Sequence record: NC_073083.1
Origin: Escherichia phage BF9
Strand: one strand, 5' to 3'
DNA: 44,963 nt
The notes under the pieces: model-generated
What the model was told of the DNA's origin: nothing
Databases searched by the model: none
What the model saw: only the letters and a program-made list of their open reading frames with translations
Position numbers and translations under genes: made by a program
Shown here: in pieces, positions 37,618 through 44,518 of the stretch
Layout of the letters: every line of letters begins with the position of its first letter
Numbering within the stretch: the first letter of the stretch is position 1

Positions 37618-37665
37618 CGGAAACGTCAGGCAATATTGTCTGGCGTTTTCTTTTTCGGGGGGTAT

Positions 37666-38268
37666 ATGAAACATTGTGGGCGTTGTAATACGGATAAAGA
37701 TGAGTCCGCTTTCAACAAGGGTCAGTCGTGGTGTGCCAAATGCATGGCGGCGTATAAGAAAGAGAGACGTGATAAGGAAAGAGGAGCGCCGCCGCGCGAA
37801 GTATGGCGAGAGTATACCGGGGAGATCGTAACGTGCCGTCAGTGCGGGGAACGCAAGCCGCTTACGCCGGAAAACTTCCGGCCCGGAAACCGGGCAAGCC
37901 AGTCACACATTCGTAAAGAATGCAGGTCGTGCTCTAATAAGTCCCGCCGTGAGTACAACCACCGGACACCAGAGATCCGAGCTTACTATAAGCTCTTTCA
38001 GTACCGTAAGGCGGACGAAAGGAAGGGGCTAACCACCGACCTAACCACCGAGGACGTGCTACGCCTTACTTCTCAACCATGCGCATACTGCGGATTCACC
38101 GGCGACAATGGCGCGGACCGACTCGACAACGCAGTAGGCCATACGAAAGATAACTGCGTGCCGTGCTGCGTAGAGTGCAACATAGCCCGCGGGGACCGGT
38201 TTACCCCGGACGAAATGAAGAAGTTTATCGGACCGGCCATCGCGGCCGTAAGGAAAAGCCGACAATGA
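37666..38268 (+). CDS. HNH endonuclease-like, Cys-rich (zinc finger) protein
   Basis: Several CxxC pairs (CGRC, CAKC, CRQC, CRSC, CAYC, CCVEC) and DRLDN...GHT...N, HNH-like; start at MKHCGRC with RBS GGGGGG. Confidence 0.5.
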   Translation: MKHCGRCNTDKDESAFNKGQSWCAKCMAAYKKERRDKERGAPPREVWREYTGEIVTCRQCGERKPLTPENFRPGNRASQSHIRKECRSCSNKSRREYNHRTPEIRAYYKLFQYRKADERKGLTTDLTTEDVLRLTSQPCAYCGFTGDNGADRLDNAVGHTKDNCVPCCVECNIARGDRFTPDEMKKFIGPAIAAVRKSRQ

Positions 38269-38543
38269 CACCAGAAGGCAAGATACAAAGTCACCTGATG
38301 AAGCTGGTTAAAGCCGTTGGGGGATTCTGCCGAAAACTGGCATGGGAGGGGCGCGCAGGTGCGCCCGACCTGATTATTATCATCAACGGCAAAATAGTGT
38401 TCGTCGAAGTGAAGCGCCCCGGTGGCAAACCGAAGCCGCACCAGGTACGAGAACATGAGCGAATGGTCCGACGAGGTGCGGACGTTCGCGTCATCGACAA
38501 CATAGCCGACTGTGATTTATTGGTTGCTGAATTGGTCGCGTAG
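38265..38543 (+). CDS. VRR-NUC domain nuclease (PD-(D/E)xK)
   Basis: 92 aa; ...GAPDLIIIINGKIVFVEVKRPGGKPKPHQ... gives a D...E-V-K...Q pattern. Confidence 0.55.
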   Translation: MTPEGKIQSHLMKLVKAVGGFCRKLAWEGRAGAPDLIIIINGKIVFVEVKRPGGKPKPHQVREHERMVRRGADVRVIDNIADCDLLVAELVA

Positions 38544-38800: not shown

Positions 38801-39019
38801 ATGAAAGAACATTATCGACTCACCACACTGGGCGAATGCAAACCTGGCGATCGCGTATGGTTTATCGCTGGCATGAATAACCCGCTGCCGTTGACGGTGT
38901 GCTGGCAAAAATTTAAGAGCTTCCGGGCGACGGGTGTGCACATCGGTCACCGCACCAACTACGACGCCACAAAAAGGAACTGGAACAGTGAGACAGAAGT
39001 CTGGAAAAAGGCGGAATAA
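38801..39019 (+). CDS. Hypothetical protein (72 aa)
   Basis: Internal ATG (MKEHYRL) of track ORF 38786..39019 with RBS GGGAGA. Confidence 0.4.
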   Translation: MKEHYRLTTLGECKPGDRVWFIAGMNNPLPLTVCWQKFKSFRATGVHIGHRTNYDATKRNWNSETEVWKKAE

Positions 39020-39023
39020 AGAT

Positions 39024-40448
39024 ATGGCACGATTCCGACGCCGCGAATATCAGAAGTTGATAACCGCGTTCATCCTCAAGCATAAGCGATGTAATATCTG
39101 GGCGACAATGGGTTCCGGTAAAACCGGCGCGACAATGTGGGCGCTGAATAAAATGTTCCAGACGGGTATCCTGTCCTACCAGGAGGACCGCGTACTGGTG
39201 CTGGCCCCGCTGCGCGTTGCGTCAGGTACGTGGCCCCCGGAGCAAGAAAAATGGCGATTCCCCGCCCTGCTGGTAGTAGACGGCACAGGACCAGAGAAGG
39301 ACCGCATAGCCGCGCTGGAGAGTAACGCTAATGTGGTTTGTGTTAACTATGATGTAGTTGAGTGGCTGGTTGACTATTACGGCGATGCGTGGCCCTTTAC
39401 GGTCGTTGTTGCCGATGAATCGACTAAGCTGAAAGGCTACCGAAGCAAGCAGGGAAGTAAGCGCGCACGCGCACTGGCGGCGATTGCACATAAGCACGTC
39501 AAGCGCTGGATTAACCTGACCGGCACACCAGCGCCAAACGGGCTGAAAGACTTATGGGGTCAGACGTGGTTTGTCGACGGTGGCGAACGCCTCGGCAGTA
39601 GCTATACGGCATTTACGGATCGCTGGTTTATTAGCAAGCCTGTTAAGCCTGGCAGCTTCACGATGCAGCACGCCCCGCTAAAGAACTCCGAGAAAGAAAT
39701 ACAACAACGCCTGTCTGACGTATCACTAACCGTTGACGCGGCTGAATACTTCGGATGTGACAAGCCAATATATACGCCGGTTGTTGTGGATCTGCCGAAG
39801 AAAGCCCGCAAGATTTACGACCAGTTTGAAAGCGAGCTATTTGCCGAACTGGAAAGCGGAACAGTGGAAGCGGCGAACGCGGCATCGAAGACCATCAAGT
39901 GCCTTCAGCTTGCTTCCGGCGCTGTGTATAAGGTGGACGAAGACGGCGAACGGACCGACGAGTGGGTGAAGATTCACGACGCGAAGCTGGACGCGCTGGA
40001 AAGTATCGTGGAGGAATTGAACGGGGCGCCGTTGCTCGTTGCGTATCAGTATAAGCATGATCTGGCACGTCTTAAGAAGAAATTCCCGCACGGCGTCGCG
40101 ATGGGTAAGGGTAAGCAAGGAAATAAGGATATGGAAGCGTGGAACAGGGGTGAGATCCCCATCATGTTCGCGCACCCGGCATCGGCGGGTCACGGCCTTA
40201 ACTTGCAGGATGGCGGACACCACCTTGCTATATTCTCAGACACCTGGAACTATGAGCACTTTGCGCAGATCGTGGAGCGTATCGGGCCAGTTCGCCAGAT
40301 GCAAGCCGGACACCCTCGTCCCGTATTCGTCTACATTATCCAGGCGCGCGGCACACTGGACGAACTGGTTGCCGAACGTCGCGACAGTAAGCGCGATATT
40401 CAGGATGACCTGATGGAATACATGAAAGCTAAAAAGGCGCGCAAATGA
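39024..40448 (+). CDS. Superfamily 2 DNA helicase (SNF2/DEAD-like)
   Basis: Walker A MGSGKTG, DEAH-like VVADEST, and a C-terminal helicase domain; start at MARFRRREYQ, internal to track ORF 38934..40448. Confidence 0.7.
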   Translation: MARFRRREYQKLITAFILKHKRCNIWATMGSGKTGATMWALNKMFQTGILSYQEDRVLVLAPLRVASGTWPPEQEKWRFPALLVVDGTGPEKDRIAALESNANVVCVNYDVVEWLVDYYGDAWPFTVVVADESTKLKGYRSKQGSKRARALAAIAHKHVKRWINLTGTPAPNGLKDLWGQTWFVDGGERLGSSYTAFTDRWFISKPVKPGSFTMQHAPLKNSEKEIQQRLSDVSLTVDAAEYFGCDKPIYTPVVVDLPKKARKIYDQFESELFAELESGTVEAANAASKTIKCLQLASGAVYKVDEDGERTDEWVKIHDAKLDALESIVEELNGAPLLVAYQYKHDLARLKKKFPHGVAMGKGKQGNKDMEAWNRGEIPIMFAHPASAGHGLNLQDGGHHLAIFSDTWNYEHFAQIVERIGPVRQMQAGHPRPVFVYIIQARGTLDELVAERRDSKRDIQDDLMEYMKAKKARK

Positions 40449-41140
40449 TAATTTGGTCATTGTTCGACGGCAGCGGCTTGATGATTGAGCGTGCGGCCGA
40501 GATGGGGCATAAGTGTTATTGCTTCAACTACTCCGAAGCCGACCACGGGTCGTACCTGGACTACCGGATTTATGGGCGCGGTATCCGATATCGTAATGAG
40601 TTTATCGATCTGGACTTCGTGGACCGCGCGATGAATGGTGATTTCGGCACGCCGGATATCATTTATGCATTCCCGCCGTGTACGGATCTGGCGGTTAGCG
40701 GTGCGCCAGCGTTCCCGCGCAAACGCGCCCGCGACCCTGCCTTCCAGCTTAAGGCGGTGCGCACCGCGAAGATCGCCGCTTACCTGGGTGATTTCTTTGA
40801 AGTGCCGTATATGATTGAGAATCCGCGCAGCGTGCTATCAACTCAATGGCGTAAGCCTGACCACTCGTTTGACCCGTGGGAGTATGGCGGATATCTGCCG
40901 GAGGATGACGTACACCCGTTATTCCCTGAATACATCAACGCCCGCGATTCATATCCGAAGCTGACCTGCTTATGGACCGGCAACGGCTTCCGTATGCCAG
41001 AGAAGAAACCTGTTTTCGTTGAAAAAGGGTACTCGAAGCAGTATAGTCGCCTCGGAGGCAAATCTGCCCGCACCAAATTAATCAGGTCGCTCACCCCGCG
41101 CGGCTTCGCGATAGCGGTTAACGAGGAAAATTTAAAATGA
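40445..41140 (+). CDS. Putative DNA (cytosine-5) methyltransferase-like protein, short (231 aa)
   Basis: LFDGSG (motif I-like), AFPPCTDLAVSG (PC catalytic motif-like), MIENPRS (ENV-like); shorter than typical C5 methyltransferases. Confidence 0.4.
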   Translation: MIIWSLFDGSGLMIERAAEMGHKCYCFNYSEADHGSYLDYRIYGRGIRYRNEFIDLDFVDRAMNGDFGTPDIIYAFPPCTDLAVSGAPAFPRKRARDPAFQLKAVRTAKIAAYLGDFFEVPYMIENPRSVLSTQWRKPDHSFDPWEYGGYLPEDDVHPLFPEYINARDSYPKLTCLWTGNGFRMPEKKPVFVEKGYSKQYSRLGGKSARTKLIRSLTPRGFAIAVNEENLK

Positions 41141-41460
41141 ATACTGCATTCGACGCCATCGACTTTTCAGTGGCAATGACCAATCAGCTTTTTTCCTACG
41201 ACAGTAAAACGGGCGTTATCCGCCTTAAGTCAACCGGCTGCAAGATTGGCAACCTCAATACTGCCGATGGCGGTACTCGTATCGAATGCAACGGCAAGAC
41301 GCTGTCTGGCGCACGCGTGGCGTGGATTATCGCGACCGGCAATACAATTCCACCAGGCTTCGCCGTTGTGTGCCGTCAGCGCACGCCAGGCCATTACGGC
41401 AACCGGATCAGCAATCTTTATTTGGTGGACGTTGCACGCGACCCGAACTTTTATGCGTAA
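41137..41460 (+). CDS. Hypothetical protein (107 aa), possibly a degenerate HNH-like DNA-binding domain
   Basis: Track ORF; the pattern ...NGKTLSGARVAWIIATGNTIPPG...NRISNL resembles HNH_3-type endonucleases but lacks the His. Confidence 0.3.
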   Translation: MNTAFDAIDFSVAMTNQLFSYDSKTGVIRLKSTGCKIGNLNTADGGTRIECNGKTLSGARVAWIIATGNTIPPGFAVVCRQRTPGHYGNRISNLYLVDVARDPNFYA

Positions 41461-41541
41461 ATTGGTTGCATAATCATATTGGTTGCATTATATTGAGGGT
41501 GTCCGGTTTGGACGCCCTTTTTAATACCTGGAGACGACACG
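41461..41541 (+). promoter_or_regulatory. Promoter with tandem TTGGTTGCA motifs
   Basis: aaATTGGTTGCATaatcataTTGGTTGCATTATATTgag gives TTGCAT-N17-TATATT. Confidence 0.5.
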
Positions 41542-41784
41542 ATGAGATCATTATTTTTCGACTACGACGGCGACCTTCGATTTTGGGTGATACTCACCCT
41601 CATGTTTGCCGTTTGTATTTTCGTACCTACCGCGGCTATTTACTACACGGAACGCTACGAATGCAAGACCGTGTATGCCGAGCAAACTGGCCGTAATACC
41701 CAATGGCGCTATGGAACTTGCTGGGTCGAGAAGGACGGCAAATTTATTCCACGCGATGAAATCCGCACTACGGAGATTAAATAA
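41542..41784 (+). CDS. Small membrane protein (80 aa)
   Basis: One transmembrane helix (FWVILTLMFAVCIFVPTAAIYY). Confidence 0.45.
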   Translation: MRSLFFDYDGDLRFWVILTLMFAVCIFVPTAAIYYTERYECKTVYAEQTGRNTQWRYGTCWVEKDGKFIPRDEIRTTEIK

Positions 41785-42243
41785 ATGAAAATTTTACAAG
41801 AAGAAAAAGCATACTGGGCCGCGCAATGCCTCGAAGCCCGCGAACAGGCCGACCGTGCGAACGCGTTGGCGGACACCAACCAGGCGCTATATGAAGGCGA
41901 GGAGAAGGCGCGCAAGGAATTAGAGGAGCGCTTCGATCTGCTGTATGAGTTGATGGGTATTATGCAGCGCACCGGATACACCACCACCGTCGCGCTAAAC
42001 CGCATCACTGCCGAAGGTCTGCGCGAGCATTGCAAACGTGCCGAGGAGTACGTGCGTCCGAAGGGTCGTCAGTCTAAGATCGACCGGAAAGACCTGGTGC
42101 TTATGGCGTGGCGCGCAAACGGTAGCTACTACTCCGATTGCCGACCGCTTAGCGTCGAGGGAGCAAAGCGCCGGCAACGCGTTCTAAACAGTGGTAAGAA
42201 AATTGCCCTGTACGCGATAGATCAAGACCATGCAGAAGAGTGA
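41785..42243 (+). CDS. Hypothetical protein (152 aa), coiled-coil N-terminus
   Basis: Track ORF, tightly coupled to its neighbours. Confidence 0.45.
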   Translation: MKILQEEKAYWAAQCLEAREQADRANALADTNQALYEGEEKARKELEERFDLLYELMGIMQRTGYTTTVALNRITAEGLREHCKRAEEYVRPKGRQSKIDRKDLVLMAWRANGSYYSDCRPLSVEGAKRRQRVLNSGKKIALYAIDQDHAEE

Positions 42244-42715
42244 GCAGAAAGATAGCTGGCGCACACCGCCAGCTTTATTTAAACCGCTTCGTCGGAAATA
42301 CCGATTCCGTTACGATATGGCGGCGAGCGACGCCAATCATCTGCTACCGCGTTACTTCACGGCGGAGCACAGCGCGCTTGATGTGGACTGGGCAGAGTTG
42401 AAAGGGTGGAAATGGTGCAATCCGCCGTATTCCGACCCGCTGCCGTGGGTGGAATGCGCAGCGCACGGTCGCCGGACTGTCATGCTACTGAATCAGGATA
42501 CGTCGACGAAGTGGGCGAAGTTGGCCCGGAAGACTGCAAACCTGATAATTCTTCTGGACTGGCGGATACGATTTATACATGCTGTCACCGGCGAAGTCGG
42601 TCCGAGCAATAACAAGTGCCAGCAATTGATAATCTTTGACGAAGCGCCGCCCATCGGCAGCGCACAAATTGAAATAATGAGCGAGAGTGAGTTACATGAA
42701 TATCTTAATCGTTGA
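42230..42715 (+). CDS. DNA N6-adenine methyltransferase (phage Dam-like)
   Basis: 161 aa with the NPPY motif (WCNPPYSD) and a conserved N-terminal WRTPP. Confidence 0.6.
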   Translation: MQKSEQKDSWRTPPALFKPLRRKYRFRYDMAASDANHLLPRYFTAEHSALDVDWAELKGWKWCNPPYSDPLPWVECAAHGRRTVMLLNQDTSTKWAKLARKTANLIILLDWRIRFIHAVTGEVGPSNNKCQQLIIFDEAPPIGSAQIEIMSESELHEYLNR

Positions 42716-42920
42716 CCGCGACCCCGAGGTCGTATACCGGATTCAAAAAGACTACGGCATCGACCAGCGCCGCGATCGTGTGAAGCGCGTGTCACGTCCC
42801 GAACATATCCAGGGCCTGGATCTTACCGGCTGGCTTGTCATGACACAGCGATGCCATTTCGTATGCAACTCCATTACCGCGCGCAGCGCCCGATACACCC
42901 TTATTGAGAGCTTAAAATGA
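42696..42920 (+). CDS. Hypothetical protein (74 aa)
   Basis: Internal ATG (MNILIVD) of track ORF 42687..42920. Confidence 0.35.
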   Translation: MNILIVDRDPEVVYRIQKDYGIDQRRDRVKRVSRPEHIQGLDLTGWLVMTQRCHFVCNSITARSARYTLIESLK

Positions 42921-43387
42921 AACTACTGATTTGTGATCTGGATGGCGTTATTAACGGTTCAAGTGATGCGCGCGCCGACCTGGTGCCGGGGATAAAAACG
43001 AAATCAACATTTTGGGCGAAGTGGCACAAAGCGCACGTACGCGAAGACCTGAACATGGATATGCTGCCGCTGTTGCGCATGTACAAAGAGCAAGGCTTCG
43101 AGATCGCGTATCTGACGAACCGGCAGCGCGAATGTTGGGACACCACCGCCGAGCAATTGGAGGTCTTCCCCGTAGGTCGATTGTTCATGCGCCACATGCT
43201 GGACGACACCCCGCCGCCAGAGTTTAAGGCGTGCGCCGTTTTCAAAATGGTCTGCTATGCGGACGTGTCGGAACTGGTCATCATTGAAGACTGTCCGAAG
43301 AACATCGCGGCAATTCGTCGGGCGTGTGGTGATTTGGTCCCGAAAATTTACGCAATAAACGTTGCAAAATTCACTTGCAACCAATAG
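42917..43387 (+). CDS. HAD-superfamily hydrolase-like protein (possible nucleotidase/phosphatase)
   Basis: N-terminal LLICDLDGVI matches HAD motif I (DxDG). Confidence 0.45.
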   Translation: MKLLICDLDGVINGSSDARADLVPGIKTKSTFWAKWHKAHVREDLNMDMLPLLRMYKEQGFEIAYLTNRQRECWDTTAEQLEVFPVGRLFMRHMLDDTPPPEFKACAVFKMVCYADVSELVIIEDCPKNIAAIRRACGDLVPKIYAINVAKFTCNQ

Positions 43388-43942: not shown

Positions 43943-44518
43943 ATGTACGGCGAATATGAAATATCCGGTAAACAATTCCACCTGGCGGCAATGATCGCAA
44001 GCATCGAGTTTGACCAGTGGCGCTTAAAGTCCGACTCGTGCAAGCAAAGCCGTCTTGTCGGTGTTCTGGGCGAGATGTTTGCAGGTATGTACCTTGAGGG
44101 GCAGGCGGGCGGGCGTAGTTGCATACCGCAAGGCTTACTAATGCGTACCGGCCTGTTTAGCGCCAATACCATCGACCGCGGCGATATTATCATGGTAGGT
44201 AAGCGCAAGGTTAAATCTGGCCCCGACTTCCGCGAGCATGTGGTCGATGCCGTATGGACCTACGAGGTTAAGGCCACCAGCGGCATCCGTCGTGGACTGG
44301 TTGAGGCGCGTTGCGCTCGCGAATATCTGACCCGTCGCGTTGCCGGTGTTATCCTGGTGGGCGTATCGTTCGGGCAACATAGCGCGCACGGCGTGATTGA
44401 GGATATTGCGGAACCATACGTGATTGTGAACGACTGGCCCCTGGTGGAAGTGGAAGGAAAGGAATATTACGAAAGCCCGTTGGTACGGCGTAAAATGGAC
44501 TGGGAAAACTTAAACTAA
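43943..44518 (+). CDS. Hypothetical protein (191 aa), possibly PD-(D/E)xK-like
   Basis: Track ORF with RBS GAGGA; weak D...E-V-K pattern in GDIIMVG...DAVWTYEVKAT; last gene of the rightward block. Confidence 0.45.
   Translation: MYGEYEISGKQFHLAAMIASIEFDQWRLKSDSCKQSRLVGVLGEMFAGMYLEGQAGGRSCIPQGLLMRTGLFSANTIDRGDIIMVGKRKVKSGPDFREHVVDAVWTYEVKATSGIRRGLVEARCAREYLTRRVAGVILVGVSFGQHSAHGVIEDIAEPYVIVNDWPLVEVEGKEYYESPLVRRKMDWENLN

Follow-up and report, generated by a model that had tools for sequence, protein, structure and literature searches.

The DNA analysed here (the window) is the full 44,963-nucleotide (nt) stretch of Escherichia phage BF9 deposited as NC_073083.1. It contains two genes that were originally predicted, from the letters alone, to encode a short cytosine-C5 DNA methyltransferase and a Dam-like N6-adenine DNA methyltransferase. 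Both genes lie exactly where they had been placed, on the + strand, and encode proteins of 231 and 161 amino acids (aa), respectively (Table 1). On the basis of DNA similarity the window is assigned to a Dhillonvirus genome of the HK578/SSL-2009a group. A 6-kb query around the two methylase genes matched 161 phage records at ∼80–92% DNA identity, nearly all of them Escherichia phages of the genus Dhillonvirus, with an identity of about 91% to many public records, and both genes are conserved in about 150–160 Dhillonvirus records. We propose with considerable confidence that the two genes encode solitary S-adenosylmethionine (SAM)-dependent DNA methyltransferases, one a minimal C5 enzyme and the other a Dam-family N6-adenine enzyme, with the sites and roles set out below.

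All of the motifs cited in the original prediction are present. In the 231-aa protein, the FDGSG sequence of motif I comprises residues 7–11 (nt 40463–40477) and directly follows strand 1, the PPC sequence of motif IV comprises residues 77–79 (nt 40673–40681) and supplies the catalytic cysteine, C79, and the ENP sequence of motif VI comprises residues 125–127 (nt 40817–40825). The NPPY sequence of the 161-aa protein comprises residues 64–67 (nt 42419–42430). The uniqueness of these motifs was assessed by scanning all six frames of the window for stop-to-stop segments of 60 aa or more, of which there were 335. The ordered pattern FxGxG...PC...EN[VPI] occurred only once, at nt 40463, and the pattern [DNS]PP[YFW] occurred only twice, with a single NPPY, that of the 161-aa protein. 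Since NPPY and the ordered C5 pattern are each unique in the window, neither is a chance match.

The 231-aa protein is one of a large family of phage proteins. It matches phrog_757 (labelled DNA methyltransferase) over residues 1–229 with an E-value of 2e-82, and members of PHROG 757 occur in 1,510 of 50,697 phage records, including those of Dhillonvirus, Drexlerviridae, JSE-type and other large myoviruses, and Klebsiella siphoviruses. A set of 5.8 billion proteins yielded 2,880 homologues, which among the matches listed are mostly of about 226–250 aa, and at 50% identity the family comprises 816 clusters with full-length members mostly of about 210–260 aa. Because a length of ∼230 aa is constant across so large a family, the short length of the BF9 protein is not the result of truncation. 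A few metagenomic members (P0218, P0222 and P0245) are 400–453 aa in length and carry about 180 additional residues at the N terminus; the extra regions of these and other longer members gave no Pfam or PHROGs match, and there were no informative fusions. In an alignment of 58 diverse family members, C79, G86, E125, P127, P144, Y170, K172, T174, W177 and P185 are invariant and the C-terminal segment R214-S-x-T-P-R-G-F-A-x-A is near-invariant, while N126 is retained in at least 90% of the family. Across the family only the final glycine of motif I is well conserved, and at motif II the BF9 protein has an asparagine where most relatives have an acidic residue.

An activity has been reported for a relative of the 231-aa protein. 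Phage K42, a member of the Drexlerviridae that is 95.4% identical to KarlJaspers (Bas06), was the source of phages that escape the retron Ec86 (Eco1), and in all four escapers the 711-bp dcm gene was disrupted (bioRxiv 10.1101/2023.08.16.553469). Expression of K42 Dcm was toxic only when the retron was present and increased the 5-methylcytosine (5mC) content of Ec86 multicopy single-stranded DNA (msDNA), as measured by liquid chromatography–mass spectrometry, and a C82A/E128A/K175A/K176A mutant gave neither toxicity nor a rise in 5mC (bioRxiv 10.1101/2023.08.16.553469). The corresponding 711-bp Dcm-like gene of KarlJaspers, a near-identical counterpart of K42 dcm, is bas06_0055 (MZ501090), and its product is 54% identical to the 231-aa protein (E-value 2e-86) and collinear with it from end to end. 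Residues C82, E128 and K175 of K42 Dcm align with C79, E125 and K172 of the BF9 protein. Given this collinear identity and the aligned catalytic residues, it is very probable that the 231-aa protein is active as a DNA methyltransferase and forms 5mC. A literature search for direct methylome data on the Dcm-like enzymes of Dhillonvirus or Drexlerviridae phages found only the retron Ec86 study.

Several observations weigh against this assignment or against its extension to a Dcm-type site. The 231-aa protein has no match in Pfam (none even at an E-value of 0.1) or in NCBIfam, nor was it matched by PADLOC. Searched as a single sequence against PDB sequences, it gave only noise, and a profile built from the 58 family members gave Rossmann-type noise, with M.HaeIII appearing only at an E-value of about 1. 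The C5 methyltransferase model PF00145 was matched only below threshold, by 11 of the 58 relatives and with a best E-value of 3e-4. The canonical QxRxR of motif VIII is absent, and the strand in question carries the invariant sequence Y170-x-K172-x-T174-x-x-W177 instead. There is no target-recognition domain of normal size, as only about 35 residues (about 180–213) separate the last core strand from the R214 segment. One of the four positions altered in the K42 mutant, K176, corresponds to L173 in the BF9 protein. Finally, Ec86 msDNA is poorly methylated in a dcm+ MG1655 host alone and is methylated by the phage enzyme (bioRxiv 10.1101/2023.08.16.553469). The assignment of K42 Dcm to CCWGG rests on mutation of the msDNA site and not on mapping of the methylated base, so its substrate or site may differ from those of host Dcm.

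Since the sequence libraries were unable to place the 231-aa protein, structure prediction was needed. An AlphaFold2 model built from the 58-sequence alignment has a mean predicted local distance difference test score (pLDDT) of 93.8 and a predicted template modelling score of 0.91. In a Foldseek search against the PDB, all 50 matches listed were DNA cytosine-C5 methyltransferases, the best being DNMT3A and DNMT3B with E-values of about 4e-7 and template modelling scores of about 0.5–0.55, whereas generic Rossmann-fold methyltransferases rank lower and align over only about 120–135 residues. The order of the modelled secondary structure fits a C5 core, in which motif I follows strand 1, PPC follows strand 4, ENP is on strand 5, and the last core strand spans residues 174–179. 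As modelled, the target-recognition region is minimal, as in DNMT3. The C5-like assignment is therefore upheld by the predicted fold, the invariant catalytic cysteine and ENP motif, and the end-to-end identity of 54% to a phage Dcm for which 5mC formation has been reported.

The missing Pfam and NCBIfam matches, together with the lack of a canonical motif VIII, of motif X and of a normal-sized recognition domain, would also fit a methyltransferase fold that is catalytically dead or has been repurposed, for example for DNA binding or regulation, as would the asparagine in motif II. However, the catalytic cysteine and the glutamate of ENP are invariant in the 58 diverse relatives, the family length is constant over 816 clusters, and the K42/KarlJaspers enzyme, which is active by report, has the same motif II asparagine and the same architecture. 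We consider a dead or repurposed fold to be very improbable, and an inactive remnant was rejected because the catalytic residues are invariant and the length is constant across the family. The original prediction had left it undecided whether the short protein is minimal, divergent or inactive; the first two descriptions are favoured and the third is unlikely. The added resolution is that the short C5 enzyme is conserved, minimal and probably active, and that the phage family to which it belongs is a known one.

We infer the activity of the BF9 copies, their recognition sequences and their biological role from the genes, their motifs, family membership, fold and homology. The catalytic core of the 231-aa enzyme would consist of motif I, C79, E125 and the lysine-containing variant of motif VIII. 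The target cytosine would be flipped out, C79 would attack C6, and the methyl group of SAM would be transferred to C5, yielding 5mC on phage and host DNA. The site would probably be Dcm-type (CCWGG). An alternative is that the enzyme is an active C5 methyltransferase with a specificity or substrate unlike that of host Dcm, recognizing a very short or relaxed motif or preferring single-stranded or hairpin DNA. This is possible, and we give it appreciable but lesser weight: the recognition region of about 35 residues and the CpG-only recognition of the closest folds, DNMT3A and DNMT3B, are in its favour, as is the methylation of msDNA by the phage enzyme and its poor methylation in the dcm+ host. 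However, retron defence was lost when the CCTGG of the msDNA stem was changed (bioRxiv 10.1101/2023.08.16.553469), which is consistent with a Dcm-type site, and curators label the family Dcm-like. In addition, BASEL phenotyping describes Dhillonviruses, like Drexlerviridae, as less resistant than Queuovirinae to type I and type II restriction, which argues against very dense modification. A closely related and slightly more tentative proposal is that the enzyme is naturally minimised, and that because of its recognition region of ∼35 residues its specificity or range of substrates differs from that of host Dcm, perhaps favouring a very short motif or hairpin or single-stranded DNA. If so, this would explain why msDNA is methylated by the phage enzyme but not by the dcm+ host, and the family would be of use as a compact tool and would embody an anti-restriction strategy of its own. 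The sequence composition of the window is uninformative on specificity, as its 169 GATC sites (0.77 of Markov expectation) and 151 CCWGG sites (about 0.92) show that neither is strongly avoided. CTAG is strongly depleted, with 12 sites observed where a maximal-order Markov model predicts about 50, and GGCC is present at 0.67 of expectation.

The 161-aa protein is more readily classified by profile searches. It matches PF05869 (Dam) with an E-value of 1.5e-35 and a score of 122.8 bits, compared with a cut-off of 28.1, with residues 3–143 aligning to positions 5–152 of the 169-position model, and its length is normal for the PF05869 family. The best PADLOC model for this protein is orphan-methyltransferase, and a search against PDB sequences gave no match. 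It is 31% identical to T1 Dam (E-value 1e-16), 30% identical to the Dam-like protein of KarlJaspers and about 37% identical to the Dam of 933W-type Stx phages. Residues D8, W10, P13, D29, A31, A32, S33, N36, W54 and N64-P-P-Y-S68 are invariant among the 161-aa protein, T1 Dam, the 933W-type Dam and the KarlJaspers Dam-like protein, and the N-terminal W-x-T-P and D-x-A-A-S motifs are retained. With the PF05869 match and every one of these family-invariant residues kept, the Dam-like assignment stands, and the 161-aa protein appears to be an active Dam-family N6-adenine methyltransferase.

The enzyme would use NPPY for catalysis, and GATC would be its most likely target, possibly modified with relaxed fidelity. 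Set against this specificity are the identity of only about 30–37% to relatives annotated as Dam and a score of 85.3 bits with the TIGR01712 equivalog model, which is under the cut-off of 97.05 and marks the protein as a divergent member for which GATC function is not assured. M.EcoT1Dam modifies GATC, as does a 35%-identical relative, M.Btr190III, the latter with marked off-target activity (PMC4996451). The off-target activity of this T1 Dam relative and the divergence of the BF9 protein would be in line with a promiscuous adenine methyltransferase that is not GATC-specific. We think this unlikely, since the BASEL ranking of Dhillonviruses below Queuovirinae speaks against such an enzyme, and the window contains 6 EcoRI and 15 EcoRV sites, which are sites for enzymes of a kind that dense N6-methyladenine would be expected to block. 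Moreover, the known non-specific enzymes (the Hia5 group) are a different family characterized by DPPY plus FxGxG in another motif order, and they were rejected as kin of the 161-aa protein.

Both methylases are encoded within an early/replication gene string on the + strand, which extends from an SNF2 helicase gene through the gene for a 191-aa protein (Table 1). Neighbours in this compact string overlap by 4–20 nt or are separated by gaps of no more than 81 nt. The C5-methylase gene is joined by 4-nt ATGA overlaps to the helicase gene on its 5′ side and to the next gene on its 3′ side, and the start of the Dam-like gene overlaps the gene upstream by 14 nt. A scan for promoters and terminators found 6 promoter-like sites compared with 5.5 in shuffled sequences and no convincing internal signals that separate the genes.

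Table 1. Genes of the + strand string that contains the two methylase genes of phage BF9 (positions in the window).
Feature	Coordinates	Strand	Evidence and remarks
SNF2-family DNA helicase	38934..40448	+	Pfam SNF2-rel_dom E 3.2e-10; phrog_62 E 3.7e-157; stop overlaps C5-methylase start (ATGA, 40445-40448)
Minimal Dcm-like DNA cytosine-C5 methyltransferase (predicted), 231 aa, ATG start	40445..41140	+	
HNH-like (homing-endonuclease-like) protein, 107 aa	41137..41460	+	phrog_99 E 4.2e-16; Bas15 label 'putative homing endonuclease'
80-aa protein, function unknown	41542..41784	+	phrog_18961 E 4.3e-51
152-aa protein, function unknown	41785..42243	+	phrog_10530 E 4.8e-92; 14-nt overlap with Dam-like start
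Dam-family DNA N6-adenine methyltransferase (predicted), 161 aa, ATG start	42230..42715	+	PF05869 E 1.5e-35
Probable Ksap1 homologue, 74 aa	42696..42920	+	Position, length and L47/T50 fit the description in PMC11564622
HAD-type phosphatase (polynucleotide kinase/phosphatase-like)	42917..43387	+	phrog_415 E 4.6e-37; weak Pfam Acid_phosphat_B match
PD-(D/E)XK-fold nuclease-like protein, 191 aa; last gene of string	43943..44518	+	

No restriction endonuclease gene adjoins either methylase gene, the neighbours being the helicase, an HNH-like protein, small proteins of unknown function, a probable Ksap1 and a phosphatase. The 107-aa HNH-like protein has no match in Pfam or NCBIfam, and the site expected for the catalytic histidine of HNH_3-type enzymes appears degenerate by eye; it may be an inactive remnant of a homing endonuclease. 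The label 'DNA ligase' attached to the 152-aa protein (through phrog_10530, and copied by RefSeq in SSL-2009a) has no Pfam or NCBIfam support and the protein is far too small, so the label is probably wrong. On the 5′ side of the helicase gene there is an endonuclease VII/HNH-like open reading frame (ORF) of 210 aa (phrog_1035; 37636–38268, +) and, overlapping it, an ORF of 126 aa (38163–38543, +) whose sequence (…PDLIII…VEVK…) resembles by look a VRR-NUC/PD-(D/E)XK nuclease.

The sole candidate for a nuclease partner is the 191-aa protein, which is encoded 1.2 kb downstream of the Dam-like gene and is adjacent to neither methylase gene. It has invariant residues D81, D102 and E108-x-K110, its fairly confident model (pLDDT 82.9) has a PD-(D/E)XK fold, and one record labels it a restriction endonuclease. 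These properties and its location in the same gene string raise the notion that it forms a restriction-modification-like module with the methylases, for example to attack host or competitor DNA that lacks the phage marks. The nuclease-like protein, however, is three genes away and is confined to Dhillonviruses (six clusters), whereas both families of methylase occur in over 1,500 phage records, the majority from other phage groups, and such a module therefore seems to us very unlikely. The proposal that both methylases are orphans thus holds insofar as no restriction enzyme is adjacent, with this Dhillonvirus-specific protein as the caveat.

As solitary enzymes, the two methylases would probably serve to secure full methylation of the fast-replicating phage DNA, providing narrow protection from those restriction enzymes that are blocked by the marks. 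Such a protective role would be plausible. The lower resistance of Dhillonviruses to type I and type II restriction speaks against a broad protective role, which is unsupported, and any protection must be narrow. Both methylase genes appear to be dispensable in laboratory hosts, as the K42 escapers had deleted dcm and, in escapers of phage SECphi18, the gene that precedes ksap1 was partly lost (PMC11564622); by position this is the methylase gene. There would also be a cost, since retron Ec86 senses the Dcm-like enzyme of a related phage. Ksap1 is a Dhillonvirus protein that activates the Klebsiella Avs2 (KpAvs2) defence and is mutated at L47 and T50 in escaper phages (PMC11564622). The 74-aa ORF whose first 20 nt lie within the end of the Dam-like methylase gene, and which is followed by the HAD phosphatase gene, is a probable Ksap1 homologue because it matches that description in position, length and the residues L47 and T50. 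One short stretch of the genome would accordingly encode two proteins sensed by bacterial immunity, the Dcm-like methylase (by retron Ec86, in a related phage) and the probable Ksap1 (by KpAvs2).

Both genes are members of known and widespread phage families that are already annotated in near-identical public genomes, and their identification here is a re-discovery. Phage Henu5_1 encodes a protein that is 100% identical to the 231-aa protein and is labelled as a putative C5 cytosine methyltransferase. In Bas15 (PaulFeyerabend, BASEL) the pair has the same arrangement, with the putative homing endonuclease in between, and the labels are 'Dcm-like C5 cytosine methyltransferase' and 'Dam-like N6-adenine methyltransferase'. 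The significance of the analysis is modest in that it confirms routine annotation to be correct, and the doubt raised by the size of the short protein is settled, because small size is a conserved family trait and not a sign of decay. The minimal C5-methylase family, for all its frequency among phage records, is outside Pfam and NCBIfam, and methylome data would close a real but small gap.

The closest known systems are the Dhillonvirus orthologues (bas15_0036 and bas15_0033 of Bas15, gp38 and gp34 of SSL-2009a, and those of Henu5_1), which have 92–100% protein identity and the same order and show only strain-level differences. The K42/KarlJaspers Dcm has the same short architecture (236 versus 231 aa) and also belongs to PHROG 757. 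However, it comes from another phage family and another gene neighbourhood, and the reported activity and retron triggering are those of the K42 enzyme. Compared with the PF00145 enzymes M.HhaI, M.HaeIII and E. coli Dcm, the 231-aa protein is about 100 residues shorter and lacks the large recognition domain and QxRxR; the identity is about 13–15% and the Pfam gathering threshold is not reached. The catalytic domains of DNMT3A and DNMT3B, which are eukaryotic, about 280 aa in length, CpG-specific and part of DNMT3L-containing oligomers, are also only about 13–15% identical to the 231-aa protein, and the likeness is structural and not evidence of a direct relationship. For the 161-aa protein the counterpart is the phage Dam family (M.EcoT1Dam, HP1 Dam and VT2/933W Dam), whose characterized members methylate GATC and whose PF05869 model the protein covers nearly in whole. 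T1 Dam differs in having an N-terminal extension of roughly 50 aa and an internal insertion, both of which are absent from the BF9 protein.

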